The position numbers were made by a program, and so were the translations under genes. Shown here one piece after another: positions 3,543 through 25,462 of a DNA stretch of 25,462 nt. The first letter of the stretch is position 1, and each line of letters begins with the position of its first letter. The DNA lies in the IMG/VR virus record IMGVR_UViG_2698536672_000007. One strand, written 5' to 3'. The DNA is from a virus (lineage: Duplodnaviria > Heunggongvirae > Uroviricota > Caudoviricetes). The notes beneath the pieces were generated by a model. The model searched no databases. It saw nothing but the letters and a program-made list of their open reading frames with translations, and had not been told where the DNA came from.

Positions 3543-3545
3543 AGA

Positions 3546-4940: not shown

Positions 4941-5314
4941 GCTGCTACCTGTTGCGCCATCTGATTACGGGTGATCCAGAAGGCAATAACGGTCAGCAGA
5001 TAAAAGACCAGGGTAAGAGCCCACCCCGTCCAGGCGAGACTGACGACAATCAGCAATCGCATCATCCAGCTGATAAATACGTTTTCTTTTCGGGTAATTG
5101 TCTTCAGCAAAGATGCCCTCAACTCCTGCCAGAGCGGGCCGTTCTTAATTAACGCAGCCAGTGATACCGGAATTACTGCCCATGTCAGCAGACAGGCTAC
5201 CCAGACACCAGATGCTGCCAGTACCGGAAAAATCCCCTGCGGATACACCATTGCGGCGATTAACAGCGCTATCCATAACATCAGAAACAGCCCGCTGATT
5301 ACTTTCTTTTTCAT
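4937..5314 (-). CDS. lysA: Lysis timing membrane protein (LysA-like)
   Basis: ORF-track start is GTG at 5386; in-frame ATG at 5314 (MKKKVISGLFLMLWIALLIAAMVYPQ...) follows GGGAG with a 9-nt spacer; several hydrophobic helices. Confidence 0.6.
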   Translation of the reverse strand: MKKKVISGLFLMLWIALLIAAMVYPQGIFPVLAASGVWVACLLTWAVIPVSLAALIKNGPLWQELRASLLKTITRKENVFISWMMRLLIVVSLAWTGWALTLVFYLLTVIAFWITRNQMAQQVAA

Positions 5315-5315
5315 T

Positions 5316-5828: not shown

Positions 5829-6024
5829 AGTCCTCCCGCGAGATCTGCCCGTCGCGCAGAAGCTGGTAGGCTTTGTGTTTGTAGTACCAGTTGATAGCCA
5901 GCATCAGCACACCGATCATCAGGCCGCCCAGCGTTGAGGCATCCTTGATGGACAAATCGCCCAGCCAGGCCAGCACGACGGCGATGCAATACGTGATAAA
6001 GGCGCTGATTCGCTCAAGCGTCAT
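5809..6024 (-). CDS. Y: Holin (small membrane protein)
   Basis: 71-aa ORF with ATG at 6024; two hydrophobic helices and a charged C-terminus; immediately upstream of the endolysin. Confidence 0.65.
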   Translation of the reverse strand: MTLERISAFITYCIAVVLAWLGDLSIKDASTLGGLMIGVLMLAINWYYKHKAYQLLRDGQISREDYESINR

Positions 6025-6027
6025 AAT

Positions 6028-6231
6028 TCAGTCCCATAGCTGGACGGTCTGCACGGTGGTGGTTGTCGGAATGTCCGGCAGCTCCACCTGCAGCCCGTGA
6101 GGTAAAAAGGGGCCGTATTCGGCAAGCCCCGGATTTGCCTTCAGTACCTGCTCCGTGACACCCTGCGTGCGCCCGTAATGACGCCAGCAAAGTGCGTCCA
6201 CCGTGTCATACTGATGCGCACGCACTTTCAT
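6028..6231 (-). CDS. X: Tail protein X (P2 gpX-like)
   Basis: 67-aa ORF with ATG at 6231 overlapping the L stop (ATGA); position between L and the lysis genes as in P2. Confidence 0.7.
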   Translation of the reverse strand: MKVRAHQYDTVDALCWRHYGRTQGVTEQVLKANPGLAEYGPFLPHGLQVELPDIPTTTTVQTVQLWD

Positions 6232-6695
6232 CAGATAAGCTCCACTGTGCAGTGCGGCGCATCCTGCACCCGGCTGATGGCCCAGCGGGCGTCACGCCAT
6301 AAATCACCGCTTGCTTCCGCCAGTTCCTCGCCTCGCTTCGCACCGGATGCCGTGGCGTCATAGTCCTGGTAACGTTCGTTGAGCATGGCGCGTGCCCAGC
6401 AGTAAACCGCGTTGAAATAGTGCTGAATGCGCTCGCTTTTGCCGTCCAGTTGTTCCGCCGGGACTTCTGCCAGCGAGGCATATCCCAGCATCTGCTGGCG
6501 TCTGCGAAACTCATACAGCTCTGCGTTGACCTCCGAAATTGCCGACAGGGCAACCTGTTTTAAACGCGGCTGCGTCACCGTGCCGTCAGTGCGCATCACA
6601 CTGCGAAACTCCGACAGGTCCACATCAGGCCAGAACGGCGTATTCCTGATGATTTCCGCCTGTTCCGGTGCCTGTTCTGGCGCAACAAACTTCAT
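6231..6695 (-). CDS. L: Head completion/stabilisation protein (P2 gpL-like)
   Basis: ORF-track start is GTG at 6758 with no SD; in-frame ATG at 6695 (MKFVAPEQAPEQAEIIRN...) follows AGGAG with an 8-nt spacer. Confidence 0.75.
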   Translation of the reverse strand: MKFVAPEQAPEQAEIIRNTPFWPDVDLSEFRSVMRTDGTVTQPRLKQVALSAISEVNAELYEFRRRQQMLGYASLAEVPAEQLDGKSERIQHYFNAVYCWARAMLNERYQDYDATASGAKRGEELAEASGDLWRDARWAISRVQDAPHCTVELI

Positions 6696-6790
6696 GCTGC
6701 TTTCTCCTGAAATAGAGGGCGGTGGACGGGGTTTTGATGTGGCAGTGCCTTTCGCCACCCCGTGCCGCCCGTGCGCGGGGGCACGTTCTG

Positions 6791-7441
6791 TCAGCGGCTG
6801 TCATTGCGCAGTCTGCGCTCCAGCTGCTGTTTGTCTTTTTTCACGCCACAGCGGGGATCGAGCTGTAACGCATGGTTGAGATGATTAAGGGCAGACGCCG
6901 GATTTCTTTCACTCAGGACAGCGCCAATCGCTTTATGCAGACGCGCCCGTGACTGGTCCGGCATATCCATACCGTCTGTCAGCTCCAGGGTCTGCAGCAA
7001 CAGATCGGCATCAAAGCCGGTGGCAGCAAGCATTGCGCTCTGGGCTGCATCTGCCATTTCCTCTGCCAGCACGGTCTGCACGTTGCGGTTACCTAACGGC
7101 ATCACCCAGCCATGACGCAGGGCGTGACGCCCGATCTCCAGCGCCCCGGCATAATCTCCGGCATCAATGCGCCACAGCATCACGTACATCAGCACGTCAT
7201 CCTGTTGAGCGCCTCCGGCAGCCAGGACACCCTCCGCCCAGGCGGCGTACTTCGGCAGCAGCTCCACCTTGATTTCCGCTTTTTTGACCGTGGACTGAAC
7301 GCCCTTGAGACGGCGGCGGTCTTCCGCCAGTTGCAGCAGCATCAGGTCATAGCCCGACGCGTGGCGAACGCTGCCGCCCTCGCGGGCGGCCTGTTCAGCC
7401 TGAACGCGCAGGCGATGCTGCCGTGCGGGACTCAGGCTCAT
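6791..7441 (-). CDS. M: Terminase small (endonuclease) subunit (P2 gpM-like)
   Basis: 216-aa ORF with ATG at 7441; position O-N-M-L in the conserved capsid operon. Confidence 0.8.
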   Translation of the reverse strand: MSLSPARQHRLRVQAEQAAREGGSVRHASGYDLMLLQLAEDRRRLKGVQSTVKKAEIKVELLPKYAAWAEGVLAAGGAQQDDVLMYVMLWRIDAGDYAGALEIGRHALRHGWVMPLGNRNVQTVLAEEMADAAQSAMLAATGFDADLLLQTLELTDGMDMPDQSRARLHKAIGAVLSERNPASALNHLNHALQLDPRCGVKKDKQQLERRLRNDSR

Positions 7442-7444
7442 GAA

Positions 7445-8503
7445 TTACGCTCCGGTTTCTGCTGCTGCGGCGCTGAAGTCGCCAATCTGGATGTTTTCCA
7501 CCAGTGCGGCGCAGCGGTAGTCCTCAACCACATAGGCTTCGTTAACGGATTCAAAGTTTTCAATCCGGTCACGTTTCGGGTTGTCGATAACTGAGCGGCG
7601 GCGGGTGTCTTCCTGCCAGTAGATGGACAGGTTATCCAGACGGGTGATCAGCAGTGCATTCGGCGGGAAGAACGGCGCACGCACGGCCTGCAGGCCACCC
7701 ATGCGTTTCTGACTGATGATCATATCGGCAGCCAGTTTTTCACTGTTTTCCTGCTCTTTGTTGACCAGCGGGAAATACTTGTCAGACAGCAGTTCACGAC
7801 CGCAAATCACCACCAGATCGTCATCGTCCTGGTAGACCACATCGATAAGCTCATTGACGGCATCCATCACCACAGCGTCCAGGTTGGCATATTCGCCACC
7901 TTTCCCGACTTTCACCGCACCCGGTGTGGTTTCACCGCCCGTGGTGGTGCTGCCCATGACGTGATCCGGTGCATCTTCACGGATTTTCTGCAGCCAGCCT
8001 TTGTTCACATCCTGCAGCAGCGGGTTTTCGCTACGGTTGGAGGTTTTCGCACGCTTCACGCCGTTAAAGCCGATCATGATGCGGTCCAGAGCCTGACGTT
8101 TCACGATGGCGTCACGGATGCGCACCTGGAAATCCTGAAACTTCGCCCACAGGTCCAGCTTCGCGTAGGTCAGCACCGTGTCAAAGTTGGTCTGCTCGCA
8201 TTTATATTCCACATCGACCATCAGCGTCGGATCGACAGGTTCACGCTCTTTCGCGGTGGTGTCAGTGGTTCCGGCAATGGTGCTGCCAACTCCCAGCCCC
8301 AGCAGCTGACCGGACTGCTCAGTCACTGGCGTGACGTTAATCAGCGTCAGGAAAGCGGCGGACTGCTGGATCTGGTCTTCCAGCGTCTGCTGCACAGACG
8401 GCTCCACGGTGAACTTGCTGGACAGTTCTTCAACTGCCACACCGTTCAGACGCGCCAGCTGCTGCAGGTAAGCGTTAAAAGCAAAGCGGGTATTCTTCTT
8501 CAT
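7445..8503 (-). CDS. N: Major capsid protein precursor (P2 gpN-like)
   Basis: 352-aa ORF with ATG at 8503 (MKKNTRFAFNAYLQQLARLNGV...); size and position match P2 gpN. Confidence 0.85.
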   Translation of the reverse strand: MKKNTRFAFNAYLQQLARLNGVAVEELSSKFTVEPSVQQTLEDQIQQSAAFLTLINVTPVTEQSGQLLGLGVGSTIAGTTDTTAKEREPVDPTLMVDVEYKCEQTNFDTVLTYAKLDLWAKFQDFQVRIRDAIVKRQALDRIMIGFNGVKRAKTSNRSENPLLQDVNKGWLQKIREDAPDHVMGSTTTGGETTPGAVKVGKGGEYANLDAVVMDAVNELIDVVYQDDDDLVVICGRELLSDKYFPLVNKEQENSEKLAADMIISQKRMGGLQAVRAPFFPPNALLITRLDNLSIYWQEDTRRRSVIDNPKRDRIENFESVNEAYVVEDYRCAALVENIQIGDFSAAAAETGA

Positions 8504-8519
8504 CGGGTTTTGTGCTCCA

Positions 8520-9353
8520 TCAGCAATTGGTCAGAGTGTCAGCGGGGGCGTTACCGCCTGTTGCACGCTGGCGGTAGTCCTGGCGACTGTCTTCATGACT
8601 CAGCTTGTCCACCAGTTCGTTAAAGGCGGTTTGCTGTGCCTGCAGGGCAGTCTCCAGCTCAGACAGGCGTTCTTCCTGCTCAGACAGGGATTTTTCGGTG
8701 CGTGCGCTCAGGTTCTGCTGCTCAGTGGCGACCAGCTCCACGGCCTTATGCACATCAGAGAACCGGGCGTCATCGGACTGCTCTTTTTTGGTAAACAGCG
8801 CCGTGACGCGGGCAAGCAGGGACGGTTTGTCGTCCTGGATTTCTTCCAGTTCGATCACCGTTTCCTCTGCAGCGGTAAAGAGATTGGCAGGATTCTGCTT
8901 GCGGTTTGCCAGCGGGTTATGGGCTGCACTGGCGCTGAATGTCAGCATTTCCGTACCCAGACTGGCAGGGTCATCAGTGGCAGCCAGGCCGACCAGATAG
9001 GCTTTGCCCGTATCAGCGAACTTCGGGCTGACTTCCATAGAGGTGAATAATTTCTGGCCTTTTTTCACCAGTTCCACCAGGGACTCCGTTGGCTCAACGT
9101 CGGCATACAGCGCCATCTTGCCTGCCAGCGGACCTTCCGTGATTTCTTCAGCAAACAGCGCCGTCACCTTGCCGTAGCGGTTAAAGGTGCTGTCCGGCAG
9201 ATAAGACTTGATGTGCTCAAGGTTAATCAGCGCGGTATACACCGCCGGGTTGTAGCTGGCTGCCATCTGTTCCAGCCATTCACGCTGGATTTCGCGTCCG
9301 TCGGTGGTGGCACCTTCCACCCCGATGCGAAAACGCTTTGCTTTCACTGTCAT
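8520..9353 (-). CDS. O: Capsid scaffolding protein (P2 gpO-like)
   Basis: 277-aa ORF with ATG at 9353; first gene of the minus-strand capsid operon, divergent from P. Confidence 0.85.
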   Translation of the reverse strand: MTVKAKRFRIGVEGATTDGREIQREWLEQMAASYNPAVYTALINLEHIKSYLPDSTFNRYGKVTALFAEEITEGPLAGKMALYADVEPTESLVELVKKGQKLFTSMEVSPKFADTGKAYLVGLAATDDPASLGTEMLTFSASAAHNPLANRKQNPANLFTAAEETVIELEEIQDDKPSLLARVTALFTKKEQSDDARFSDVHKAVELVATEQQNLSARTEKSLSEQEERLSELETALQAQQTAFNELVDKLSHEDSRQDYRQRATGGNAPADTLTNC

Positions 9354-9431
9354 GAGCCGTGCTCCGTTAGAAAAAACTTACTGGAGCCTTATGGTTGCGG
9401 TGATGGGGGCAGTGAAACAATGCGCGGTATT

Positions 9432-9449
9432 TGTACCGACAACCACACA
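9432..9449 (-). promoter_or_regulatory. Candidate late-promoter activator site (TGT-N12-ACA) in the O/P divergent intergenic region
   Basis: TGTACCGACAACCACACA matches the TGT-N12-ACA dyad; its centre is about 85 bp upstream of the O start codon, consistent with a -55 activator site for the O promoter. Confidence 0.4.
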
Positions 9450-9495
9450 AACCGCAGGCGGGGAAAGCCTTCATTCAAGGCTGTAGGTTTGTGCC

Positions 9496-11262
9496 ATGAA
9501 CACCACACTGACACCCGCAGATCTCGATCCCCGTCGGCAGGCCATGCTGCTGTACTTTCAGGGATACCGCGTAGCCCGCATTGCTGAAATGCTGGGCGAG
9601 AAAGTTGCAACCGTTCACAGCTGGAAAAAACGCGACAAGTGGGGTGACTATGGGCCGCTGGATCAGATGCAGCTCACCACCGCCGCACGCTACTGCCAGC
9701 TCATTATGAAGGAGCACAAAGAAGGGAAAGATTTCAAAGAGATTGACCTGCTGGCGCGCCAGTCGGAGCGCCATGCGCGGATCGGCAAGTTTAACAATGG
9801 CGGCAACGAAGCCGACTTAAACCCTAACGTCGCCAACCGCAACAAAGGCCCGCGCCGTCAGCCGGAAAAGAACGTTTTCACCGATGAACAGATTGAGAAG
9901 CTGGAAGAAATCTTCCATTCCTCCATGTTCAACTACCAGCGCCACTGGTGGGAAGCCGGAAAAACCAACCGCATCCGCAACCTGCTGAAGTCACGCCAGA
10001 TCGGCGCGACCTTCTATTTTGCCCGTGAAGCCCTGATTGACGCCCTGCTAACCGGGCGTAACCAGATTTTCCTTTCCGCCAGCAAGGCTCAGGCCCACGT
10101 CTTTAAGCAGTACATCATCGACTTCGCCAAAGAAGTGGAGGTGGAGCTGAAAGGCGATCCGATGGTGCTTCCTAACGGGGCCACGCTGTACTTCCTCGGC
10201 ACCAATGCCCGCACGGCCCAGAGTTACCACGGCAACCTGTATCTGGATGAATATTTCTGGATACCGAAATTCCAAGAGCTGCGCAAAGTGGCTTCCGGTA
10301 TGGCTATTCACAAAAAATGGCGACAAACCTATTTTTCCACGCCATCCAGCCTGACACACAGTGCTTATCCGTTCTGGTCCGGTGCGCTGTTCAACCGAGG
10401 GCGCAACAAAGCCGATAAGGTGGACATCGACCTGTCCCACAGCAATCTGGCCCCCGGCCTGCTGTGCGCAGACGGGCAGTACCGCCAGATAGTCACTGTG
10501 GAAGATGCGGTGCGCGGCGGCTGTAACCTGTTCGACCTCGATCAGTTGCGCATGGAGTACAGCCCGGACGAATACCAGAACCTGCTGATGTGCGAGTTTG
10601 TGGACGATCTCGCGTCCGTGTTCCCGCTCAGCGAGCTGCAGGCGTGCATGGTGGACAGCTGGGAAGTCTGGACCGACTTTCATGCACTGGCTCTGCGCCC
10701 GTTTGGCTGGCGCGAAGTGTGGATCGGTTATGACCCGGCAAAAGGTACGCAAAACGGCGACAGCGCCGGATGCGTGGTGGTGGCACCGCCAGCCGTGCCG
10801 GGCGGTAAGTTCCGCATTCTTGAGCGTCACCAGTGGCGCGGGATGGACTTCCGCGCCCAGGCTGACGCCATCAAAAAACTGACCGAACAGTACAACGTGA
10901 CCTATATCGGTATCGACTCGACCGGCGTTGGTCACGGGGTTTATGAGAACGTGAAAGCGTTCTTTCCTGCCGTCCGGGAGTTTGTCTACAACCCCAACGT
11001 TAAAAACGCCCTGGTACTCAAGGCCTACGACATTATCAGCCACCGCCGTCTGGAGTTTGACGCCGGGCACACCGACATTGCGCAGTCATTCATGGCAATC
11101 CGTCGCGCCACCACCGCCAGTGGCAACCGCCCGACCTATGAAGCCAGCCGCAGCGAAGAAGCCAGCCACGCCGATCTGGCCTGGGCAACGATGCACGCAC
11201 TGTTTAACGAACCGCTGCAGGGCGAATCCGCCAATACCAGCAATATTGTGGAGATTTTTTGA
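9496..11262 (+). CDS. P: Terminase large (ATPase) subunit (P2 gpP-like)
   Basis: 588-aa ORF with ATG at 9496; size and position match P2 gpP; stop overlaps Q start (TGATG). Confidence 0.85.
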   Translation: MNTTLTPADLDPRRQAMLLYFQGYRVARIAEMLGEKVATVHSWKKRDKWGDYGPLDQMQLTTAARYCQLIMKEHKEGKDFKEIDLLARQSERHARIGKFNNGGNEADLNPNVANRNKGPRRQPEKNVFTDEQIEKLEEIFHSSMFNYQRHWWEAGKTNRIRNLLKSRQIGATFYFAREALIDALLTGRNQIFLSASKAQAHVFKQYIIDFAKEVEVELKGDPMVLPNGATLYFLGTNARTAQSYHGNLYLDEYFWIPKFQELRKVASGMAIHKKWRQTYFSTPSSLTHSAYPFWSGALFNRGRNKADKVDIDLSHSNLAPGLLCADGQYRQIVTVEDAVRGGCNLFDLDQLRMEYSPDEYQNLLMCEFVDDLASVFPLSELQACMVDSWEVWTDFHALALRPFGWREVWIGYDPAKGTQNGDSAGCVVVAPPAVPGGKFRILERHQWRGMDFRAQADAIKKLTEQYNVTYIGIDSTGVGHGVYENVKAFFPAVREFVYNPNVKNALVLKAYDIISHRRLEFDAGHTDIAQSFMAIRRATTASGNRPTYEASRSEEASHADLAWATMHALFNEPLQGESANTSNIVEIF

Positions 11263-12311
11263 TGGGAAAGAGTAAGAAGAACCGCGCTGCGGCGACGAAC
11301 CAGATTCAGCATAAAATCCAGACTTCAGCCGAAGCATTCAGCTTTGGCGATCCCATTCCAGTACTGGACCGCCGCGAACTGCTGGACTATGTGGAATGCG
11401 TACAGATGGACCGCTGGTATGAGCCGCCCGTCAGCTTTGACGGACTGGCACGAACCTTCCGCGCCGCCGTGCATCACAGTTCCCCGATTGCAGTAAAGTG
11501 CAACATTCTGACCAGTACCTATATCCCTCATCCGCTGCTCAGCCAACAGGCTTTTTCGCGTTTTGTGCAGGACTATCTGGTATTTGGTAACGCCTACCTG
11601 GAGAAACGCACGAACCGATTCGGTGAAGTTATAGCCCTTGAGCCTGCGCTGGCAAAATACACCCGACGCGGGTTAGACCTGGATACCTACTGGTTTGTGC
11701 AATACGGTATGACAACCCAGCCGTATCAGTTCACGAAAGGCAGCATTTTTCATCTGATGGAACCTGACATCAACCAGGAGATCTACGGCCTGCCAGGTTA
11801 TCTTTCTGCCATTCCGTCAGCCCTGCTCAACGAGTCCGCCACGCTGTTCCGCCGGAAGTATTATATTAACGGCAGTCATGCAGGCTTCATCATGTACATG
11901 ACCGATGCCGCGCAGAACCAGGAGGATGTGAACAACCTCCGCAATGCGATGAAAAGCGCCAAAGGCCCTGGCAACTTCCGCAACCTGTTTATGTACTCGC
12001 CTAACGGCAAAAAGGACGGGCTTCAGATCATCCCGTTGTCAGAAGTCGCGGCGAAGGATGAGTTTCTGAATATCAAGAACGTGAGCCGGGACGACATGAT
12101 GGCGGCACACCGTGTGCCGCCGCAAATGATGGGGATTATGCCAAGTAATGTTGGAGGATTTGGAGATGTAGAGAAGGCGAGTCGAGTGTTTGTTCGAAAT
12201 GAATTAATGCCTTTACAAAAACGATTACAGGAATTTAATGAATGGTTAGGAATTAATATTATCCATTTTGAAAAATATAACTTAATAAACGATGACCCAC
12301 AATCAACATAG
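11262..12311 (+). CDS. Q: Portal protein (P2 gpQ-like) with compositionally atypical 3' end
   Basis: ORF-track start 11259 is TTG; ATG at 11262 (MGKSKKNRAAATNQ...). Portal-like sequence follows P as in the P2 P-Q operon. The last ~55 codons (about 12150..12311) are markedly AT-rich. Confidence 0.85.
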   Translation: MGKSKKNRAAATNQIQHKIQTSAEAFSFGDPIPVLDRRELLDYVECVQMDRWYEPPVSFDGLARTFRAAVHHSSPIAVKCNILTSTYIPHPLLSQQAFSRFVQDYLVFGNAYLEKRTNRFGEVIALEPALAKYTRRGLDLDTYWFVQYGMTTQPYQFTKGSIFHLMEPDINQEIYGLPGYLSAIPSALLNESATLFRRKYYINGSHAGFIMYMTDAAQNQEDVNNLRNAMKSAKGPGNFRNLFMYSPNGKKDGLQIIPLSEVAAKDEFLNIKNVSRDDMMAAHRVPPQMMGIMPSNVGGFGDVEKASRVFVRNELMPLQKRLQEFNEWLGINIIHFEKYNLINDDPQST

Positions 12312-12341: not shown

Positions 12342-13680
12342 CATAAGCGCTAACTTAAGGGTTGTGGTATTACGCCTGATATGATTTAACGTGCCGATGA
12401 ATTACTCTCACGATAACTGGTCAGCAATTCTGGCCCATATTGGTAAGCCCGAAGAACTGGATACTTCGGCACGTAATGCCGGGGCTCTAACCCGCCGCCG
12501 CGAAATTCGTGATGCTGCAACTCTGCTACGTCTGGGGCTGGCTTACGGCCCCGGGGGGATGTCATTACGTGAAGTCACTGCATGGGCTCAGCTCCATGAC
12601 GTTGCAACATTATCTGACGTGGCTCTCCTGAAGCGGCTGCGGAATGCCGCCGACTGGTTTGGCATACTTGCCGCACAAACACTTGCTGTACGCGCCGCAG
12701 TTACGGGTTGTACAAGCGGAAAGAGATTGCGTCTTGTCGATGGAACAGCAATCAGTGCGCCCGGGGGCGGCAGCGCTGAATGGCGACTACATATGGGATA
12801 TGATCCTCATACCTGTCAGTTCACTGATTTTGAGCTAACCGACAGCAGAGACGCTGAACGGCTGGACCGATTTGCGCAAACGGCAGACGAGATACGCATT
12901 GCTGACCGGGGATTCGGTTCGCGTCCCGAATGTATCCGCTCACTTGCTTTTGGAGAAGCTGATTATATCGTCCGGGTTCACTGGCGAGGATTGCGCTGGT
13001 TAACTGCAGAAGGAATGCGCTTTGACATGATGGGTTTTCTGCGCGGGCTGGATTGCGGTAAGAACGGTGAAACCACTGTAATGATAGGCAATTCAGGTAA
13101 TAAAAAAGCCGGAGCTCCCTTTCCGGCACGTCTCATTGCCGTATCACTTCCTCCCGAAAAAGCATTAATCAGTAAAACCCGACTGCTCAGCGAGAATCGT
13201 CGAAAAGGACGAGTAGTTCAGGCGGAAACGCTGGAAGCAGCGGGCCATGTGCTATTGCTAACATCATTACCGGAAGATGAATATTCAGCAGAGCAAGTGG
13301 CTGATTGTTACCGTCTGCGATGGCAAATTGAACTGGCTTTTAAGCGGCTCAAAAGTTTGCTGCACCTGGATGCTTTGCGTGCAAAGGAACCTGAACTCGC
13401 GAAAGCGTGGATATTTGCTAATCTACTCGCCGCATTTTTAATTGACGACATAATCCAGCCATCGCTGGATTTCCCCCCCAGAAGTGCCGGATCCGAAAAG
13501 AAGAACTAACTCGTTGTGGAGAATAACAAAAATGGTCATCTGGAGCTTACAGGTGGCCATTCGTGGGACAGTATCCCTGACAGCCTACAAAACGCAATTG
13601 AAGAACGCGAGGCATCGTCTTAACGAGGCACCGAGGCGTCGCATTCTTCAGATGGTTCAACCCTTAAGTTAGCGCTTATG
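12342..13680 (+). mobile_element. IS186 (IS4 family) insertion sequence, apparently complete
   Basis: 23-bp terminal inverted repeats CATAAGCGCTAACTTAAGGGTTG (12342..12364) and its reverse complement (13658..13680); a single 370-aa transposase ORF; flanked by a 10-bp duplication of a G-run/C-run palindrome, the known IS186 target preference. Confidence 0.85.
12397..13509 (+). CDS. insL: IS186 transposase (DDE, IS4 family)
   Basis: Protein MNYSHDNWSAILAHIGKPEELDTSARNAG... matches the E. coli IS186 transposase as I recall it; ORF-track start at 12391 is GTG, ATG at 12397 gives 370 aa. Confidence 0.9.
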   Translation: MNYSHDNWSAILAHIGKPEELDTSARNAGALTRRREIRDAATLLRLGLAYGPGGMSLREVTAWAQLHDVATLSDVALLKRLRNAADWFGILAAQTLAVRAAVTGCTSGKRLRLVDGTAISAPGGGSAEWRLHMGYDPHTCQFTDFELTDSRDAERLDRFAQTADEIRIADRGFGSRPECIRSLAFGEADYIVRVHWRGLRWLTAEGMRFDMMGFLRGLDCGKNGETTVMIGNSGNKKAGAPFPARLIAVSLPPEKALISKTRLLSENRRKGRVVQAETLEAAGHVLLLTSLPEDEYSAEQVADCYRLRWQIELAFKRLKSLLHLDALRAKEPELAKAWIFANLLAAFLIDDIIQPSLDFPPRSAGSEKKN

Positions 13681-13690
13681 GGGAACCCCT
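13681..13690. repeat. Target-site duplication, right copy (GGGAACCCCT)
   Basis: Identical to 12332..12341; abuts the right IS186 inverted repeat. Confidence 0.75.
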
Positions 13691-13698
13691 CCACATTG

Positions 13699-15891
13699 TT
13701 AAGTACGTAACATAATTTGCTGTTGAACTTGGATAGGCTGTAAGGTTTGATATTTCTGCCTAATTAGGTTATATAAATCCGGCATTTCTTCAGCAGATAA
13801 AGTCACAACAAGAACATATGGTAGTTCTTCTAACTCGTCAACATCAATAGGCATACCACAGTCTCTACCATAGTAGATAATATCAAAGCATGGGTTTGTC
13901 AGCTCATTCGGTTTAAATTTGTGTTCACTTCTTAACGTAGTCTCCCATTTATGTGCATCAACACGTTGCTCATTTTCATCTGCATAAACATTTTTTAGAT
14001 TAAAAAGAGGAAACGTTAACCCGGAACTATCTGAAACACCTTTTCTCATGGTTACTTCTAGACCGCTTCTTGTATAATTCAAAGGATGTTCCGCATCTAC
14101 AGGACTGGAAAAACAGAATGTCGCTCTTAAATTTACACATCCACGCATAGGTACATCTGGAAACGGAATAGGTGCTCGCATGTGTTGTGATGGTTTTAAA
14201 GTACCTTGATATATAACTTTAACTTCATCATCATCACAAAATATTACTTCACTAAGATCATGAGGAAATCGTCCCCAACCAACTTCAGCACGATTGATAT
14301 TATTGCTCTCCGCATGATGTATAAGCAGAGCTTTAGCCGTAAGTGGTGTAATGTTGTAATTTAGAGAAGCACTTAACGCGATTGCTTGCCTCAGGACTAA
14401 TGGAGCAGAAAAGCTAGTCCCCGCAGTGCGGGCAAGACCATTAACCATAGGGCTGTATACCTGGAATGGCTCATCAGAATGTCCTCCAAATGCAACTCCA
14501 TCAGGCTTCACAAAGCCAGGGCTTCGTCCAGGACCAATACAACTGTAAGAACATCTTTCCCAACTATCAGATAAAGAGGTTGCTGCACCTACTGACAGAC
14601 CATTAACTAAATCAGCAGGTGGTTGAATTCGATTTAACCTGGCAGGCAGCTGACCATCATTTCCAACCGCGACAGTACAAAGTGTTTCTCCTGATGCAAG
14701 TATCTCCTCAAGAGTTGAGGTCCACACATGCACGTCATCGTCATCAACAGGTAATCTAGGTCCTAAGCTCAGATTGATATAATCATATTTTTTTTGTTCT
14801 AATACACTTTTAATACGGATCAGAACGTCAAAAAGATCGACATCTGAGTTATTAACATTGGAATCCAGTACACGATAATGGTCAATATTACAATAAGGGA
14901 CACTTAATTTTTCCGTTTCAGAGCCAAGAACACCAAATAACACAGTAGAGGTGACATCCTGTCCATGAGAAAGAAGTTTTGCATTAGTACTAGCATTACC
15001 GTTGAAAGTGTACTCTGTTACCCAAGGATTGAAATCATCGATCCCCAATCCACCATCGAATATGGCAACCTTTATGTGTGGGTTTACCGCTCCTTCAGAT
15101 GGTAAACTAAGGTTAGATGTTTGAATCACAGAACGTGATATAACAGGCTCACTTAGCCTTAATTCAGGAAGTTCTCTCAAAGTCCTGAGAAATGAAAACT
15201 CTGCAACTTTTAAAGCTACATCTTTACTAGCCTTAATAGGCATAAAGGTTAGCCCCTTAACTTTTATACTTCTTGCCTTATCTATAACAGCACCATTTTG
15301 CGAAGCAAAAACTTCAAAACTATCGACAATAGAGGAACTTGTATCAGGAGTATGTAAGGCGACCTCAATACTCATAACTTCATTGCTATTAATCGTTTTT
15401 ACTTTATCTGAAACTTCCAGTATTGAAATATTTTCTAAGGTGACAAAATCATTTTGCTGCCCTTTCGTTAGGGTATCTTGATTTACAGAGTCTAAGAATG
15501 ATTGAAAACTTTCTTTTTTGCCAGAAACATAAATACACGCTGTAGTGTATTCCTCTTTTCGCCCTCTTTTTTTAATATCTTTTCTAGGTTTTACTTTTAC
15601 AGCCTTACTGCCTATGCTTTCTAGGGAAAATCGCTCAAAAAGACTTACTGGAAAATAACTTTTTGCTAAGAATGCCGGATGCAAAACAAATTTTGCTACA
15701 GCCTTACCTTCAGGCATTGCTAACAATGGAAGGGTATTAATTTCCTCAATCAACTCTTCCAGTTGAGCAGATATCACTGGTTTATTTTCTGAATAAGAGT
15801 AAGGTTTATTCTTTTCACCTCCACCTCTGTTAAGTTTAACAGGGTCAGTTAGTGTTTCACCATAGCCAAGAAGCATATTTTTATCATTCAT
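13699..15891 (-). CDS. Subtilisin-like serine protease (MEROPS S8-type catalytic core) with large N- and C-terminal extensions; candidate defence effector
   Basis: Catalytic motifs in D-H-S order: VAIFDGGLG (Asp), LSHGQDVTS (His), YINLSLGP (oxyanion Asn), GTSFSAPLV (Ser). No signal peptide. ORF-track first codon is TTG at 15906; I prefer ATG at 15891 (MNDKNMLLGYGE...), preceded by GAGGA with a 9-nt spacer and overlapping the upstream ATPase stop by 8 nt. Low GC. Confidence 0.75.
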   Translation of the reverse strand: MNDKNMLLGYGETLTDPVKLNRGGGEKNKPYSYSENKPVISAQLEELIEEINTLPLLAMPEGKAVAKFVLHPAFLAKSYFPVSLFERFSLESIGSKAVKVKPRKDIKKRGRKEEYTTACIYVSGKKESFQSFLDSVNQDTLTKGQQNDFVTLENISILEVSDKVKTINSNEVMSIEVALHTPDTSSSIVDSFEVFASQNGAVIDKARSIKVKGLTFMPIKASKDVALKVAEFSFLRTLRELPELRLSEPVISRSVIQTSNLSLPSEGAVNPHIKVAIFDGGLGIDDFNPWVTEYTFNGNASTNAKLLSHGQDVTSTVLFGVLGSETEKLSVPYCNIDHYRVLDSNVNNSDVDLFDVLIRIKSVLEQKKYDYINLSLGPRLPVDDDDVHVWTSTLEEILASGETLCTVAVGNDGQLPARLNRIQPPADLVNGLSVGAATSLSDSWERCSYSCIGPGRSPGFVKPDGVAFGGHSDEPFQVYSPMVNGLARTAGTSFSAPLVLRQAIALSASLNYNITPLTAKALLIHHAESNNINRAEVGWGRFPHDLSEVIFCDDDEVKVIYQGTLKPSQHMRAPIPFPDVPMRGCVNLRATFCFSSPVDAEHPLNYTRSGLEVTMRKGVSDSSGLTFPLFNLKNVYADENEQRVDAHKWETTLRSEHKFKPNELTNPCFDIIYYGRDCGMPIDVDELEELPYVLVVTLSAEEMPDLYNLIRQKYQTLQPIQVQQQIMLRT

Positions 15892-16966
15892 TGTCTTCAT
15901 CCTCAACCGTCAAAACCTTACGTACTTGTGACCTTGAAATCCCCAAATCTAAAGCGATTTTTCTTTGTGATACATTGTTGTTTGACATGTTTTTTATAAC
16001 ATCATCAAGTGACACGCCATCTAACAACTCATCAATTAAAGCTGAACTTAAAGGAATATCTTCTATAATGGCATTTCTTTTAGCTTGATTTATAGCTCTC
16101 TCAAGAACTGCATATGAAACTTTTTCGAGTTTTGTAGCAATATAGTACGATAAGCTATCTCCAATATTTTTAGAACAGAGATATCTTCTCATTAGGTCTT
16201 GTGTTGGATATTCAAAATCAATAACTCGATCGAATCTTCTCCATGCAGCAGGATCAAGCAGCTCCGCATGGTTAGTTGCTGCTATAAGAACAGACGTATT
16301 TGGCCATTCATCAATTGCTTGCAATAATACTGTAACTAATCTTTTTAGTTCTCCAACATCTGTTGCATCATCCCTTTTTTTAGCAATCGCATCAAATTCG
16401 TCAAGAAGCAGTACACAAGGGAATGACGAAGCATAATTGAGGACTGCCTTAATATTATTACCCGTTTTCCCCAAGTAGCTACTCATTACACTTGCGAGAT
16501 CTAATGTTAACAATGGCATATCGAGTTTAAAAGCGAGCCACTTTGCAGCCAAAGTCTTCCCCACACCGGGTGGTCCTCCCATAAGAAGAGATTTGGAGGG
16601 ATGCAACCCTTCTTTATAAAGGCGTTCTTTCATTTCCCACTCAGCCACAAATCGATTCAGTTGAACATCAGTTTTTGTTGGCCAAACAGGTTCAACATCA
16701 ATGACCACAGGATATGTTTCAACTAGCAGCTTTTGTCTTGTATCCGCATCAACAGGTGTTATTTTAGGAACAACTGGATTAGCCCTTTCGACTGCAATTG
16801 CGCCACCCGTATTAATAAGTAAATCTTCTAATTTACCCGCTAATTCAGGAGATTCTTTTTTTAGTTTTTTTGCCATAATCCGCAACCGCATGAGGAGACT
16901 TTCCCTCTTCCCCGTAAGAGCATCACTGACAACATCAATGAGCATTTCGTTTGTAACGTTTATCAT
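15884..16966 (-). CDS. AAA+ ATPase (classic AAA clade) with C-terminal helix-turn-helix; candidate defence sensor/regulator
   Basis: Walker A GGPPGVGKT, Walker B VLLLDEFD, sensor-1 LIAATN, second region of homology AAWRRFDRVI; C-terminal NVSQRKIALDLGISRSQVRKVL resembles a Fis/LuxR-type HTH. ATG at 16966; low GC. Confidence 0.75.
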   Translation of the reverse strand: MINVTNEMLIDVVSDALTGKRESLLMRLRIMAKKLKKESPELAGKLEDLLINTGGAIAVERANPVVPKITPVDADTRQKLLVETYPVVIDVEPVWPTKTDVQLNRFVAEWEMKERLYKEGLHPSKSLLMGGPPGVGKTLAAKWLAFKLDMPLLTLDLASVMSSYLGKTGNNIKAVLNYASSFPCVLLLDEFDAIAKKRDDATDVGELKRLVTVLLQAIDEWPNTSVLIAATNHAELLDPAAWRRFDRVIDFEYPTQDLMRRYLCSKNIGDSLSYYIATKLEKVSYAVLERAINQAKRNAIIEDIPLSSALIDELLDGVSLDDVIKNMSNNNVSQRKIALDLGISRSQVRKVLTVEDEDNE

Positions 16967-17156
16967 CTAACCACCCTTATGGCAAAACCGAACCACTTTT
17001 CAAACAATCATACACCAAAAAAACCTTTTTAAGGTAATTTTGAACCAAAAAAAATATTTTTAGCACCACAAATGCTCAAAACAAAACCAGTGACACTTTT
17101 GTATAACAACTAAAACCACCTATCGACAAAAATTTAGCTAAACCTTTTCAGCGCGC

Positions 17157-17176
17157 GCTCGTATCCCCGCCACGCC
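17157..17176. other. Candidate cohesive-end (cos) site of the P2/186 family
   Basis: Reverse complement reads GGCGTGGCGGGGATACGAGC; the first 13 nt match the G-rich core I recall for P2/186 cohesive ends (GGCG[A/T]GGCGGGGA...). Recalled, not searched. Confidence 0.4.
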
Positions 17177-17220: not shown

Positions 17221-17246
17221 CAAAAGCCCGCCAGTTCTGGCGGGCC
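17221..17246 (-). terminator. Rho-independent terminator candidate for the minus-strand SOS operon
   Basis: Inverted repeat GCCCGCCA-GTTC-TGGCGGGC (8-bp GC-rich stem) followed on the minus strand by TTTTG. Confidence 0.5.
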
Positions 17247-22521: not shown

Positions 22522-23031
22522 TCACAGCAAACCGAATGAAGCACCGAGGCCAGTCACGGTATCAACTGCACTCGCCATCGCAGGATTAGCCTGTAAACGG
22601 GCCTGCAATGAAACAGCAGCCAGCGCCATCAGTCGTGTTACAGAGTTAATGCTGCTGATAGCATCACGACGACCGGCACTAGTTTTTACATCACCAGATA
22701 CCGCACCTGCTGCAACACGCCCGATCTCTGCAGTTGCGCTCATGACGTAATGCGGCAGTTTCTCTTTTGCTACCTCATTAATCGGTACACATGGCAGACA
22801 ATGAATCTGTGCCAGAAAACCATCTACCAACGTTGAATCTTCAGTCAGATCGGTAAGCAGCCAGATTTCTGGTGCGGTTAATAAATGAGGTTGAGCTGGG
22901 TTCAGCTTGTTCCGCAGAATCTGCACATTCATGCCCGCACGTTCTGCCAGTTGCACCAGATTGTGGCGCAGTGCGAATGCACGACAGGCTTCATCAAAAT
23001 GTGGATGTTTGGAAACTTGGTAATCAAACAT
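22522..23031 (-). CDS. cII: CII-like lysogeny establishment activator (phage 186 type)
   Basis: ATG at 23031 gives 169 aa starting [37 protein letters not shown]..., matching 186 CII as I recall it. ORF-track start 23040 is TTG. Confidence 0.8.
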
Positions 23032-23095
23032 GGTTTTCAACTCCGAACTTATCGCAAAATCGAACTCAGCGTCTTATTGCGAAAATAGACGTCTA

Positions 23096-23299
23096 TTAAG
23101 CAGACAAAGCATCAACAGTCAGAGCAGCCAGGTTAATCATTACCTTTTCACGTTTTTTGTCTTTACGAAGACGATGACGAGGTAGTCGGCCATCAGCCAA
23201 CATGTCGTTAATCGTATCAATAGAAAGGCCAGTCAGTTCGCTATAACGTTCGATTGTGACATGTGGTGTATTCAGAGTAATTGAAATGTTAGGTGTCAT
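23096..23299 (-). CDS. apl: Apl-like excisionase/lytic-switch repressor (HTH)
   Basis: 67-aa ORF with ATG at 23299; HTH-like [19 protein letters not shown]; first gene of the early operon, divergent from cI as in 186. Confidence 0.6.
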
Positions 23300-23388
23300 A
23301 AGGCAACATTCCTTCTAGATATGGCTTGTGGCGAGCCGTTGTTTGTCGTGATTAGTAGTGAAGGCTCCAAAAGAACACTTCTGGTTCA

Positions 23389-23417
23389 ACTTTAAGATCG
23401 CTTTTGGAATCTGTCAA
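23389..23417 (-). promoter_or_regulatory. Candidate lytic promoter pR (-35 TTGACA, 17-bp spacer, -10 TAAAGT) directed towards apl
   Basis: Minus strand reads TTGACA-N17-TAAAGT in the apl-cI intergenic region. Confidence 0.45.
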
Positions 23418-23444
23418 CGAATTTTGGATTTTTTTGGAGGACTT

Positions 23445-24014
23445 GTGGATTTCAATAGCGGCGGTAAGAAAGCCATAGAACGTTTAGTTGAAGCATATGG
23501 GTTCGGTACCCGTCAGGCTCTATGTGATCATTTAGGTGTTTCTAAGAGCACCATGGCAACGCGCTATATGCGTGATATTTTTCCAGCAGATTGGGTAATC
23601 CAGTGCGCCCTTGAAACGGGCACCTCGCTTAATTGGCTAACAACAGGGCATGGTTCAAAGCAAGCATCAGCAAATACAAATACTATAGAAGTAGAAAAAT
23701 ATTTATTGTCTGATGGAGCATTGCAGAAAGACGGTTTTTATATTTTTGATAAGGGATTTCTACCCTCTACGTTTAAAAAACCTTTTGTCATCACAGATAA
23801 CAATTCTGAATTTATTTGTGATAAAGAATTTGATGATATACGTGATGGTAAATGGGTAATAAGTATTGATGGCGAAATAACGATCCGTGACATTACTCGT
23901 TTACCCGGTGGAAGAATCTTCGTCGAGGGTGGAAACAGAGCCTTCGAATGCAAGATAGAAGACATTGAAATAATTGGTAAAATTATAAGTTTAACAGTCA
24001 AGTATGTTAAATAG
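23445..24014 (+). CDS. cI: CI-like immunity repressor (HTH N-terminal domain, AT-rich C-terminal domain)
   Basis: ORF-track start 23358 is GTG and would place pR inside the gene; GTG at 23445 preceded by GGAGG gives 189 aa, close to the ~192-aa 186 CI. HTH-like QALCDHLGVSKSTMATRYMRD. Start uncertain. Confidence 0.65.
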   Translation: MDFNSGGKKAIERLVEAYGFGTRQALCDHLGVSKSTMATRYMRDIFPADWVIQCALETGTSLNWLTTGHGSKQASANTNTIEVEKYLLSDGALQKDGFYIFDKGFLPSTFKKPFVITDNNSEFICDKEFDDIRDGKWVISIDGEITIRDITRLPGGRIFVEGGNRAFECKIEDIEIIGKIISLTVKYVK

Positions 24015-24029
24015 TACCGGGAGGAAACT

Positions 24030-24221
24030 ATGCTTGGTAAGGTATTTTTTGTGGTTTTGTCATGTTCTTTGTTATTAAACCCACTAACTACCTATGCTAG
24101 AAATTATCCCTGCTCAGGGAAAAAGGGAGGTGTTTCTCACTGTACCTCAGATGGCAAATTCGTTTGCAATGATGGAACTATTAGTAAATCCAAAAAAATC
24201 TGTACTAAAAACTCACGATAA
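24030..24221 (+). CDS. Small secreted cysteine-rich protein (possible lysogenic-conversion moron)
   Basis: 63 aa; ATG at 24030 preceded by GGGAGG with a 6-nt spacer; signal peptide [23 protein letters not shown] followed by a ~40-aa Lys-rich mature region with four Cys; AT-rich. Confidence 0.5.
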
Positions 24222-24409
24222 CTTTTGCTTTTATATCTGCGTCTAAAATAAAAATGAGCCGCAGGTTAACCGCAAAAGTTACATGCTCACATAGCAAAAA
24301 GAATAGCCAACTTAATTATGGCTTCAGTGAGATGTATGGTCGTAGGATTTCATACATTGACACTGGTTATACATACAGTGAAAATGCTCTCTACTGGAGG
24401 GCATTTTTT

Positions 24410-25462
24410 ATGGCAGTACGAAAACTCACCACTGGGAAATGGCTTTGCGAATGTTACCCCGCCGGACGAAGTGGGCGTCGTGTGCGTAAACAATTCGTCA
24501 CCAAAGGCGAAGCACTGGCTTTTGAGCGCCACACGATGGAAGAAACCGAAGCAAAGCCCTGGCTGGGTGAATCAGTGGATCGTCGAACACTGAAAGACGT
24601 GGTTGAGCTATGGTTCAAACTACATGGTAAATCTCTGACAGCTGGGCAGCATGTCTATGACAAATTGCTGTTGATGGTTGACGCTCTGGGCAATCCTCTT
24701 GCAACCGATCTCACCTCTAAAATGTTTGCCCACTATCGAGATAAACGCCTGACAGGCGAGATCTACTTCAGCGAGAAATGGAAGAAAGGAGCAAGCCCGG
24801 TCACCATTAACCTGGAGCAAAGCTATCTAAGTAGTGTTTTTAGCGAACTATCCCGTCTGGGCGAATGGTCGTATCCGAACCCACTGGAGAACATGCGAAA
24901 ATTCACCATCGCAGAAAAAGAGATGGCATGGCTTACCCATGAGCAGATTGTTGAATTGCTGGCTGATTGCAAACGTCAGGACCCAATTCTGGCACTGGTA
25001 GTTAAGATATGCTTAAGCACAGGCGCACGCTGGCGTGAAGCCGTAAATCTTACCCGCTCACAGGTGACCAAATACCGAATTACCTTTGTCAGAACGAAGG
25101 GGAAGAAAAACAGAAGCATCCCTATCAGTAAAGAGCTTTACGAAGAGATCATGGCGCTTGATGGGTTCAATTTCTTCACAGACTGCTATTTTCAATTTTT
25201 ATCCGTGATGGAAAAAACGTCTATCGTGCTCCCTCGCGGTCAACTCACACACGTTCTGCGCCATACGTTTGCGGCGCACTTCATGATGTCGGGTGGAAAC
25301 ATTCTGGCCTTACAAAAAATTCTCGGACACCACGATATAAAAATGACTATGCGTTACGCACATCTGGCACCGGATCATCTGGAAACGGCGCTCCGTTTCA
25401 ATCCTCTGGCAACGCTGCCAAGTGGCGACAAAGTGGCGGCAGCGGTTGGCATTACCCCGTAA
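24410..25462 (+). CDS. int: Tyrosine integrase (P2/186 family)
   Basis: ORF-track start 24254 is likely over-extended; ATG at 24410 (MAVRKLTTGKWLCECYPAG...) gives 350 aa. Catalytic region HVLRHTFAAH ... HHDIKMTMRYAHL with the tyrosine nucleophile. Stop coincides with the window end. Confidence 0.85.
   Translation: MAVRKLTTGKWLCECYPAGRSGRRVRKQFVTKGEALAFERHTMEETEAKPWLGESVDRRTLKDVVELWFKLHGKSLTAGQHVYDKLLLMVDALGNPLATDLTSKMFAHYRDKRLTGEIYFSEKWKKGASPVTINLEQSYLSSVFSELSRLGEWSYPNPLENMRKFTIAEKEMAWLTHEQIVELLADCKRQDPILALVVKICLSTGARWREAVNLTRSQVTKYRITFVRTKGKKNRSIPISKELYEEIMALDGFNFFTDCYFQFLSVMEKTSIVLPRGQLTHVLRHTFAAHFMMSGGNILALQKILGHHDIKMTMRYAHLAPDHLETALRFNPLATLPSGDKVAAAVGITP

Follow-up and report, generated by a model that had tools for sequence, protein, structure and literature searches.

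What is encoded between the cos site and the portal gene of this P2-like prophage? In the window, the whole stretch of 25,462 nucleotides analysed here, this place is occupied by a gene for an AAA+ ATPase followed by a gene for an S8 subtilase, and the first-pass annotation had taken the pair for a candidate anti-phage system with the architecture of IetAS. The name IetAS reportedly goes back to ietA and ietS of Agrobacterium pTiC58, as described by Yamamoto et al. in 2009, and Gao et al. are said to have named the pair as a phage-defence system in 2020. Our analysis indicates that the pair is very probably an intact IetAS cassette, which a P2-like E. coli prophage carries as foreign cargo beside cos, in its gpA–gpQ defence hotspot, with IetS as a toxic protease and IetA as the protein that restrains it.

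The ietAS cassette and its genomic setting

The list of ORFs includes both genes on the minus strand, co-oriented and overlapping as first annotated and at the same coordinates (Table 1). The mechanically called ORF for ietS extends over 13699..15906, with a TTG start and 735 aa; the ATG at 15889..15891 is the likely start, as judged from RefSeq and from alignment to the published P2-hotspot IetS. With this ATG, an 8-nt overlap with the ietA stop, ATGAATGA, is read from the sequence, suggesting that translation of ietA and ietS is coupled. The cassette is also foreign in composition, as had been noted, its GC content being 0.38 versus 0.56 for the structural genes (window 1..12311). The dN/dS ratio was 0.02-0.11 for each domain of IetA and IetS, and by this measure purifying selection is acting on every domain, the flanking regions of IetS included.

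Table 1. Features of the ietAS cassette and its boundaries in the window
Feature	Position	Strand	Description
ietA	15884..16966	-	360-aa classical-clade AAA+ ATPase, putative antitoxin/regulator
IetA N-terminal region, residues 1-96	16679..16966	-	Helical bundle 6-53, then low-confidence linker ~54-76 (AlphaFold2)
IetA key residues	16556..16558 (K137)	-	Walker A K137; Walker B D189/E190; pore loop Y164-L165-G166; sensor-1 N232; Arg fingers R243/R244
IetA C-terminal region, residues 306-360	15887..16051	-	Terminal small HTH: helices 320-329, 334-341, 345-358 (AlphaFold2)
ietS	13699..15891	-	730-aa cytoplasmic S8 subtilase, putative toxin/effector
IetS N-terminal region, residues 1-262	15106..15891	-	Predicted alpha/beta subdomains including subtilisin-propeptide (I9)-like fold
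IetS S8 catalytic domain, residues 263-545	14257..15105	-	D279 (15055..15057), H309 (14965..14967), oxyanion N411 (14659..14661), S493 (14413..14415)
IetS C-terminal region, residues 546-730	13702..14256	-	Predicted beta-sandwich: jelly-roll, GOLD or collagen-binding type
Leader upstream of ietA	16967..17149	-	AT-rich, cassette-specific; GGTGG Shine-Dalgarno-like site
cos cohesive-end sequence GGCGTGGCGGGGATACGAG	17158..17176	-	Read from sequence; left cargo boundary along ietAS transcription
Right boundary	13680..13698	.	Remnant of 38-nt portal/ietS intergenic hairpin (GGAGGGGGAACCCCTCC) plus one copy of 12-bp IS target duplication
IS186-like insertion sequence	12343..13679	+	Between portal gene and ietS; DDE transposase 12391..13509

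The gene order is gpA, DinI-like gene, cos, ietAS and portal, in which gpA was assigned to phrog_91 (2.6e-291) and the portal to phrog_68 (1e-175). By its place between gpA and gpQ, its closeness to cos and its foreign GC content, the cassette belongs to the cargo of the gpA–gpQ hotspot, which holds mostly defence systems (Rousset et al. 2022). The P2 cos sequence (GGCGAGGCGGGGAAAGCAC) had no match in the window with up to 3 mismatches allowed. The record of Salmonella phage SEN8 terminates at the base corresponding to window position 17177, and the Serratia copy of the cassette carries the same cos motif upstream of ietA. As placed by the end of the SEN8 record, the cos here is a variant sequence. 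The first-pass annotation had put the pair exactly where P2 carries old/tin, another accessory phage-exclusion cargo of the cos-proximal gpA–gpQ region in a P2-family genome. The hotspot is indeed the same, but the side of cos is not: ietAS is placed on the stretch from cos to the portal gene, and tin/old on that from orf91 to cosR. The proteins are unrelated, and old/tin are read towards gpA whereas ietAS is read away from it. With ietAS on the portal side of cos, the P2 hotspot is seen to have two sub-sites, one on each side of cos.

Homology to other P2-like phages ends at about position 17150. Within the leader, a candidate −10 sequence, TATGAT (17007..17012), lies in a conserved TTTTTTTGGTGTA(T/C)(G/A)AT element, which is also conserved in the Yersinia copies. 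As the consensus promoter scan gave no sigma-70 promoter upstream of ietA, the ietA promoter stays a candidate, proposed from conservation only. The search for operator-type repeats in the leader gave only short two-copy A/T-rich matches, which were unconvincing, and zero RNA families were detected by Rfam over the whole window. The promoter/terminator scan missed the terminator hairpin on the DinI side, which has a 2-nt loop. The right boundary was defined by comparison of the window with an IS-free locus (L001). The IS186-like element (Pfam DDE_Tnp_1, 1.6e-26), with its terminal inverted repeats and target duplication, interrupts no coding sequence and is absent from NZ_CP048603.

Assignment to IetAS and relation to catalogued loci

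The PADLOC profile PDLC02196 for IetA matched residues 7-355 over profile positions 5-371 of 374 (6.7e-84), together with three other IetA models. For IetS, PDLC02197 matched residues 37-622 (1.4e-48), and five more IetS models were hit, including PDLC02199 (178-722). IetA also matched phrog_3757 (1.3e-96), and IetS matched phrog_3964 from residue 2 to 730 (4.2e-157). The only defence-specific NCBIfam matches for the pair were IteA_antiphage (NF042959), the best match of IetA (2e-73, 247.7 bits), and IteS_antiphage (NF042956), the sole match of IetS (1.3e-35, 122.9 bits). Since both scores fall below the equivalog cut-offs, which are 510 bits for IteA and 900 bits for IteS, the pair represents a divergent IetAS subtype. 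Judged from these scores, IetA and IetS are members of the family and not equivalogs of the NCBIfam reference proteins, and the specificity, or even the activity, of this allele could differ from that of the experimentally characterised IetAS systems. An IetA profile match, full-length IetS profile matches, adjacent co-oriented genes with the ATPase first, and intact catalytic residues were all found; with the genomic context and the published catalogue of Rousset et al. 2022, they bear out the early guess of IetAS.

Of the 5426 E. coli genomes that are complete, 11 carry the cassette, at 99.6-99.9% DNA identity to the present one. The order of AAA and then S8 genes, abutting or overlapping, is kept on mobile elements of Vibrio, Leptospira, Serratia and Yersinia, and full-length IetS homologues were detected by protein search in Enterobacter, Pseudomonas Pf and Paenibacillus phages. 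By Megablast, the only match of the cassette to a deposited phage was at the IS end. In the published catalogue, ietAS is system 7 of the P2 hotspot, with 400 occurrences (Rousset et al. 2022, Table S5). The IetS listed there as WP_021532214 is identical to the present one at 727 of 730 positions, and the proteins flanking that locus (a hypothetical protein and DinI) match an E. coli genome with 99.9% identical cassette DNA. A near-identical locus being already catalogued, the finding is correct but ordinary; it adds little, as standard defence-annotation profiles also recognise the system. The representative ietAS printed in the same work shares the hotspot, the two-gene architecture and the HTH on IetA, with identities of 47% for IetA and 37% for IetS (first 400 aa), indicating that the P2 hotspot houses two or more lineages of ietAS. 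From its count in the genomes and these identities, the lineage here is rare and distinct from the common P2-hotspot ietAS. Neither Iet nor S8 is mentioned in the text and supplements of a 2026 preprint on P2/P4 hotspots.

Other named systems are organised in a similar way. In IetAS generally, the AAA+ ATPase gene is followed by one for an S8 subtilase of about 730-780 aa, which is extended at both ends as in the present IetS; the pair of pTiC58 is on a Ti plasmid, whereas the present one is a divergent subtype on an E. coli P2-like prophage. The ietHAS system (Liu-DS4, NAR 2026) has the common ietA and ietS core with an extra SNF2 helicase, IetH, whereas the present cassette has no helicase gene, since cos and the portal gene delimit it. 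By description, SgiAT (S026/S025) of SGI1 and Mycoplasma TA132/133 are also alike in that mobile or island DNA carries the gene of an AAA-ATPase antitoxin followed by that of a subtilisin-like toxin, but they have been studied as stabilisation or TA modules and not as phage defence.

Predicted organization of IetA and IetS

All motifs quoted by the first-pass annotation were found at mapped residues, these being GPPGVGKT (131-138), LLLDEFD (186-192), IAATN (228-232) and AAWRRFDR (240-247) in IetA, and VAIFDGG (275-281), SHGQDVTS (308-315), NLSLG (373-377) and GTSFSAP (491-497) in IetS. In family alignments of 46 and 45 sequences, K137, D189/E190, N232 and R243/R244 of IetA and D279, H309, N411 and S493 of IetS are invariant, and the IetA pore loop F/Y/L164-L165-G166 is conserved. 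Pfam gave AAA (5.4e-30) as the only family in IetA. The best Foldseek matches were p97, Rpt, FtsH and PAN, and the closest solved structures are VAT, Cdc48, p97, Rpt, PAN and FtsH; the PDB sequence search gave generic AAA+ enzymes and no solved IetA. Alignment to VAT and to p97 D1/D2 identified Walker A/B, pore loop 1, the sensor-1 Asn and two Arg of a classical-clade AAA+ remodeller. The predicted fold is accordingly like that of PAN/Rpt, p97/VAT and FtsH, a classical AAA+ module with pore loop and arginine fingers, but it consists of a single AAA+ ring module plus HTH, without a fused protease or p97-type N-domain.

The AlphaFold2 model of IetA had a mean pLDDT of 81.2, falling below 50 at residues 54-71 and 73-76. 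The C-terminus gave sub-threshold matches to about 15 HTH families (E 0.004-0.2), and the HTH domains PF13384 or PF18024 are present in IetA homologues. Together with the predicted three-helix end, these support the C-terminal HTH noticed in the first reading; IetA is also labelled AAA/HTH_50 in the published hotspot table (Rousset et al. 2022). Taken together, IetA is a classical AAA+ ATPase of the single-ring kind that ends in a small HTH, and it may act as a hexamer.

In IetS, Pfam Peptidase_S8 matched residues 294-545 of the 735-aa ORF (4.4e-17). The triad D279-H309-S493 is intact as annotated; NLSLG, which had been counted with it, is no part of it and corresponds in alignment to INMSLGG, a substrate-binding segment in subtilisin E. 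NLSLG was also rejected as the oxyanion hole, the oxyanion Asn being N411 in VAVGNDG by alignment to subtilisin E. No hydrophobic stretch suggestive of a signal peptide or membrane helix was present. For the N-terminal part (1-279) and the last 193 aa of IetS, no Pfam match was obtained even at E up to 1, and such unassigned flanks had been thought to leave room for an undescribed variant. This view did not hold. The flanks fall within the IetS profiles and the phrog_3964 match given above, align with the published P2 ietS, are conserved down to 30% identity and are under the purifying selection noted above, and a nearly identical IetS is already in the hotspot table. By these comparisons, the flanks are typical of the IetS family.

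An Arg/Pro-rich linker at about residues 232-262 is also conserved. The N-terminal region gave no sequence-level match to the I9 propeptide, and its predicted fold is I9-like. As a whole, the predicted IetS fold resembles pro-subtilases such as Tk-SP, pro-subtilisin E, KP-43 and kexin/PCSK9 (propeptide-like region, S8, beta-sandwich), with the difference that IetS is cytoplasmic and has an N-terminal region of about three times the length of an I9 propeptide. The PDB sequence search gave subtilisin E (E 0.003) as the sole match, and no solved IetS.

Proposed mode of action and alternative readings

The proposed mode of action follows experiments on homologues, namely pTiC58 IetAS, SGI1 SgiAT, Mycoplasma TA132/133, B. 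cereus ietAS and ietHAS. For SgiAT and TA132/133, toxicity and neutralisation were shown experimentally, and SgiAT stabilises SGI1 (PMC5006074). Loss of the antitoxin alone is lethal in the case of TA132/133 (PMC8562856). In ietHAS the protease is the toxin and the ATPase the antitoxin, mutated ietA was not constructible, and defence needs the protease activity (PMC13069673). Abortive infection by ietAS is triggered by SPbeta YosG (bioRxiv 10.1101/2022.08.27.505566). By analogy, IetS of the prophage would be a toxic protease, which ATP-hydrolysing IetA would render harmless. A phage protein produced on infection would lift this restraint, and the freed IetS would cut cellular and/or phage proteins, leading to growth arrest and abortive infection, by which the lysogen population would be shielded against competing phages. 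The same TA logic would likewise hinder prophage loss.

The first-pass annotation had suggested that ATPase activity licenses proteolysis. The pair would then be a two-component ATP-dependent protease, in which IetA senses or unfolds targets and feeds or licenses IetS, the ATPase being needed for killing. The closeness of IetA to proteasomal, p97 and FtsH unfoldases, its conserved aromatic pore loop and arginine fingers, and the apparent translational coupling of ietA and ietS are consistent with such a machine. The genetics of homologues is, however, contrary to it: three homologous systems that were studied by experiment have a protease that is toxic by itself and an ATPase that counteracts it, and the mutated ietA of ietHAS could not be cloned. 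Furthermore, S8 subtilases are open, monomeric endopeptidases and not gated chambers requiring an unfoldase. We consider licensing by IetA to be quite unlikely.

That the cassette mainly serves addiction or stabilisation, keeping the prophage or its cargo in the lineage, and that this allele does nothing meaningful against phages, is unlikely. It would agree with the discovery of IetAS through its role in plasmid stability and incompatibility and with the stabilisation of SGI1 by SgiAT (PMC13069673; PMC5006074), and with the carriage of the cassette by P2-like phages, P4-like elements and further integrative elements. In addition, stand-alone protection by ietAS of E. coli ECOR52, which may not be the allele found here, is limited. 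The site is, however, a hotspot populated mainly by defence systems, members of the family protect against phages and cause abortive infection, and the roles in addiction and defence are mutually compatible. The RefSeq names of the pair, only 'AAA family ATPase' and 'S8 family peptidase', are generic enough for a housekeeping or secreted subtilase beside an unrelated ATPase, or for a decaying remnant. The probability of such an origin is practically negligible, and a housekeeping or secreted protease or a pseudogene was rejected: neither signal peptide nor membrane segment is present, the matches are specific to IetA and IetS, each ORF is intact and has a low dN/dS, the pairing of the genes is kept in different phyla, and the cassette occurs on prophage in just those 11 E. 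coli genomes.

No structural or mechanistic paper on IetAS was found in the literature. As to how IetA would restrain a toxic IetS, we infer that the N-terminal, propeptide-like part of IetS may be acted on by the pore of the IetA hexamer, IetA either keeping IetS zymogen-like or unfolding it repeatedly, and that the HTH of IetA may autoregulate the operon. Because the lineage is rare, remote from the common one and below the equivalog cut-offs, its phage trigger is possibly different. We tentatively combine these points in one model, which is rather doubtful. Besides responding to a different trigger, IetS would be a cytoplasmic pro-subtilase with its propeptide-like region held by the pore loops of hexameric IetA; ATP hydrolysis would hold or reset the zymogen, and a phage protein stalling or occupying IetA would allow IetS to mature and kill the cell. 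If true, this would be a mechanism not yet described.

The value left in the locus is as material for studying how IetAS works. The predicted architecture, with a propeptide-like region, S8 domain and beta-sandwich in IetS and a pore loop and HTH in IetA, yields testable hypotheses. The cassette is handy for this, being about 3.5 kb with its own leader and coming from E. coli, for which easy genetics and coliphage panels are at hand. As the lineage is distinct from the common P2-borne one, comparison of the two could show what sets trigger specificity.

Identity of the gene pair

The two co-oriented minus-strand open reading frames, ietA and ietS, which the first-pass annotation had placed at 13699..16966, were both present there, and all the motifs that it quoted were found in the two proteins. 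By Pfam search, the ATPase was assigned to AAA (5.4e-30) and the protease to Peptidase_S8 (4.4e-17). The ATG at 15891 was taken as the likely start of ietS because the RefSeq start is the same and because alignment with a published homologue extends to residue 1. As read from the sequence, this ATG and the ietA stop codon overlap by 8 nt, ATGAATGA, an arrangement typical of translational coupling. Neither IetA nor IetS contains a hydrophobic segment of the kind expected for a signal peptide or membrane helix.

Attribution of the pair to IetAS, tentative in the first-pass annotation, was confirmed by profile searches. Among PADLOC models, the ATPase matched IetA PDLC02196 (6.7e-84, residues 7-355 of 360) and the protease matched IetS PDLC02197 (1.4e-48, residues 37-622), together with five additional IetS models, one of which extends to residue 722. 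In NCBIfam, IteA_antiphage was the top match for the ATPase and IteS_antiphage the sole match for the protease, but the scores of 247.7 and 122.9 bits were far under the equivalog cut-offs of 510 and 900, respectively, indicating that the pair is a member of the IetAS family but of a divergent subtype. In PHROGs, the two proteins belong to full-length phage families of "unknown function", phrog_3757 for the ATPase and phrog_3964 (residues 2-730) for the protease.

The ietAS allele of the window is already catalogued and is recognised by standard defence profiles. The P2 hotspot was defined by Rousset et al. (2022), whose supplementary P2-hotspot table includes system 7, "Peptidase_S8 / AAA", with 400 occurrences and the annotation "ietAS (Gao et al, 2020)". 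Identity to the sequences printed for system 7 was 47% for IetA and 37% for IetS, and the printed sequences therefore represent another ietAS lineage than that of the window. A protein listed in that hotspot table (WP_021532214) is identical to the window's IetS at 727 of 730 residues, and its neighbours, WP_001154434 and WP_001217575, are also those annotated in E. coli NZ_CP048603. Among complete E. coli genomes, 11 of 5426 carry this rare allele, which RefSeq labels in generic terms only.

Features of the ietAS cassette and its surroundings (nucleotide positions refer to the window unless stated)
Feature	Position	Strand	Remarks
ietA ORF	15884..16966	-	360 aa
IetA Walker A	residues 131-138
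IetA Walker B	residues 186-192
IetA sensor-1	residues 228-232
IetA Arg-rich motif	residues 240-247
ietS ORF	13699..15906	-	TTG-initiated; likely ATG at 15891; 730 aa from ATG
IetS VAIFDGG	residues 275-281
IetS SHGQDVTS	residues 308-315
IetS NLSLG	residues 373-377
IetS GTSFSAP	residues 491-497
IS186-like element	12343..13679		DDE transposase 12391..13509; 23-bp terminal inverted repeats; 12-bp target duplication
Conserved element TTTTTTTGGTGTA(T/C)(G/A)AT	17007..17030; about 2860..2885 in Yersinia loci L009/L010		E. coli and Yersinia copies; ~40 nt upstream of ietA start
cos cohesive end GGCGTGGCGGGGATACGAG	17158..17176	-	end of SEN8 record matches base 17177
Hairpin GCCCGCCAG-AA-CTGGCGGGC, then TTTT	17222..17245	-	strong; after DinI-like gene, before cos
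Small ORF, 62 aa	17625..17813	-	phrog_698 (3.6e-38), conserved phage family of unknown function; between gpA and DinI-like gene

Architecture and proposed mode of action of IetA and IetS

Both in sequence and in fold, the solved proteins nearest to IetA were the classical-clade AAA+ unfoldases VAT, Cdc48/p97, Rpt/PAN and FtsH; no solved structure of IetA or IetS was found by sequence and fold searches of solved structures. Residues K137, D189/E190, N232 and R243/R244 of IetA were invariant in 45 homologues, and the pore-loop-1 position was occupied by F, Y or L, followed by an invariant L-G. In the predicted structure of IetA (pLDDT 81), a helical bundle at the N terminus is followed by a disordered linker, the AAA+ module and a C-terminal end of three helices. 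This end gave sub-threshold HTH matches alone, while the homologues score as HTH_23 or HTH_50.

In IetS, alignment to subtilisin E identified the oxyanion Asn as N411 within VAVGNDG, and NLSLG, counted by the first-pass annotation among the triad motifs, was found instead to be the substrate-binding "SLG" segment. The regions flanking the S8 domain fall inside the PADLOC IetS and phrog_3964 profiles, are 37% identical to the 400 N-terminal residues of the P2-borne IetS in Rousset et al., and contain numerous invariant positions in an alignment of 46 sequences with identity down to 42%. Matches covering 95-98% of IetS were detected by tblastn at 40% identity in Enterobacter phage phiT5282H, at 39% in a Pseudomonas Pf phage and at 30% in Paenibacillus phages. 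The dN/dS against the 87%-identical Yersinia copy was 0.08 in the N-terminal region, 0.03 in the S8 domain and 0.02 in the C-terminal region, values that are approximate because dS is near saturation. Judged from these comparisons, the flanks are part of the IetS family; the undescribed variant at which their length had hinted is unsupported, as they are covered by profiles and conserved in homologues. As a whole, IetS resembles a cytoplasmic pro-subtilase in which the N-terminal region is enlarged, although no I9 propeptide was matched at the sequence level.

IetAS was reported to be a toxin–antitoxin pair acting in plasmid stability, in which the protease is the toxin and the ATPase the antitoxin; in ietHAS, the protease is needed for defence and mutated ietA could not be cloned (PMC13069673). 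The same protease toxicity and neutralisation by the ATPase were observed for SgiAT of SGI1 (PMC5006074) and for Mycoplasma TA132/133, of which deletion of the ATPase alone is lethal in the minimised JCVI-syn2.0 (PMC8562856). Abortive infection is the mode of action of the B. cereus ietAS, and its trigger is the SPbeta protein YosG (bioRxiv 10.1101/2022.08.27.505566). The ietAS of E. coli ECOR52 gives limited protection alone and synergy with Zorya II. Licensing of proteolysis by the ATPase, the mechanism put forward in the first-pass annotation, agrees with the folds of the two proteins but conflicts with this published genetics of homologues. The best-supported model is instead that IetA would spend ATP in keeping IetS harmless, and that a phage product would lift this restraint, whereupon proteolysis by IetS would halt growth. 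The pore loop of IetA is conserved, its fold is unfoldase-like and IetS has a propeptide-like region, from which we infer that IetA may act on this last region; we also consider that the IetA HTH may autoregulate the operon. The compact E. coli cassette would be a convenient model for work on the mechanism of IetAS.

Location of the cassette in the P2-family hotspot

The neighbours of the cassette are P2-family prophage genes, among which terminase, portal and gpA were identified by PHROGs; gpA and the cassette are separated by a DinI-like gene and a small conserved ORF. The protein of this ORF, WP_001154434, borders many different cargoes in the hotspot table of Rousset et al. The GC content of the cassette is 0.38 versus 0.56 in the half of the window that holds the structural genes. 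Low GC (0.38-0.41) was also noted in a second stretch at 23001..24500, around the repressor and immunity region that lies upstream of the integrase.

The sequence record of Salmonella phage SEN8 terminates at the base equivalent to window 17177, and similarity to other P2-like phages ends at about 17150. From this position of cos and this end of homology, the cargo was delimited to about 13693..17149, between cos and the portal gene. The pair had been said to sit exactly where P2 carries old/tin, but ietAS occupies the portal side of cos; in P2, tin and old are found on the gpA side, flanked by orf91 and cosR, with transcription towards gpA. A cargo gene of SEN8 is also on the gpA side, opposite to ietAS. 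The hotspot is thus composed of two sub-sites, one on each side of cos. The hairpin at 17222..17245 probably terminates the gpA operon; owing to its short loop of 2 nt, it was missed by the terminator scan. The conserved element upstream of ietA is a candidate −10 region; the consensus promoter scan reported no site there.

An IS-free copy is present in E. coli NZ_CP048603, in the order portal, S8, AAA, DinI-like, hypothetical and gpA, with cassette DNA 99.9% identical; apart from the IS, this locus is 98-99% identical to the window. The IS186-like element of the window was inserted into a GC-rich 38-nt hairpin, GGAGGGGGAACCCCTCC, that separates the stop codons of the portal gene and ietS, leaving both coding sequences untouched; the hairpin may be the former shared terminator of the two genes. 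The structural region of the window's prophage appears to be kept in full. The prophage of NZ_CP048603 is degraded: at 4882..6023 of this locus a truncated late-control D gene adjoins the capsid-scaffold gene, indicating deletion of the tail and lysis genes, and ietAS is intact.

Related cassettes on other elements

The Serratia homologue of the cassette (73%) adjoins Phage_GPA. The Yersinia pseudotuberculosis homologue (87% amino acid identity) is carried by an element that resembles a P4-type satellite and also encodes an integrase, an HTH_3 protein and a Prim-Pol/PriCT_2/DUF927 primase. The presence of a cos-like sequence directly upstream of ietA in Serratia and Yersinia copies alike suggests movement of the cassette between the hotspots of helper phages and those of satellites. 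Distant copies in Vibrio and Leptospira retain the AAA-then-S8 order and are also on mobile DNA.
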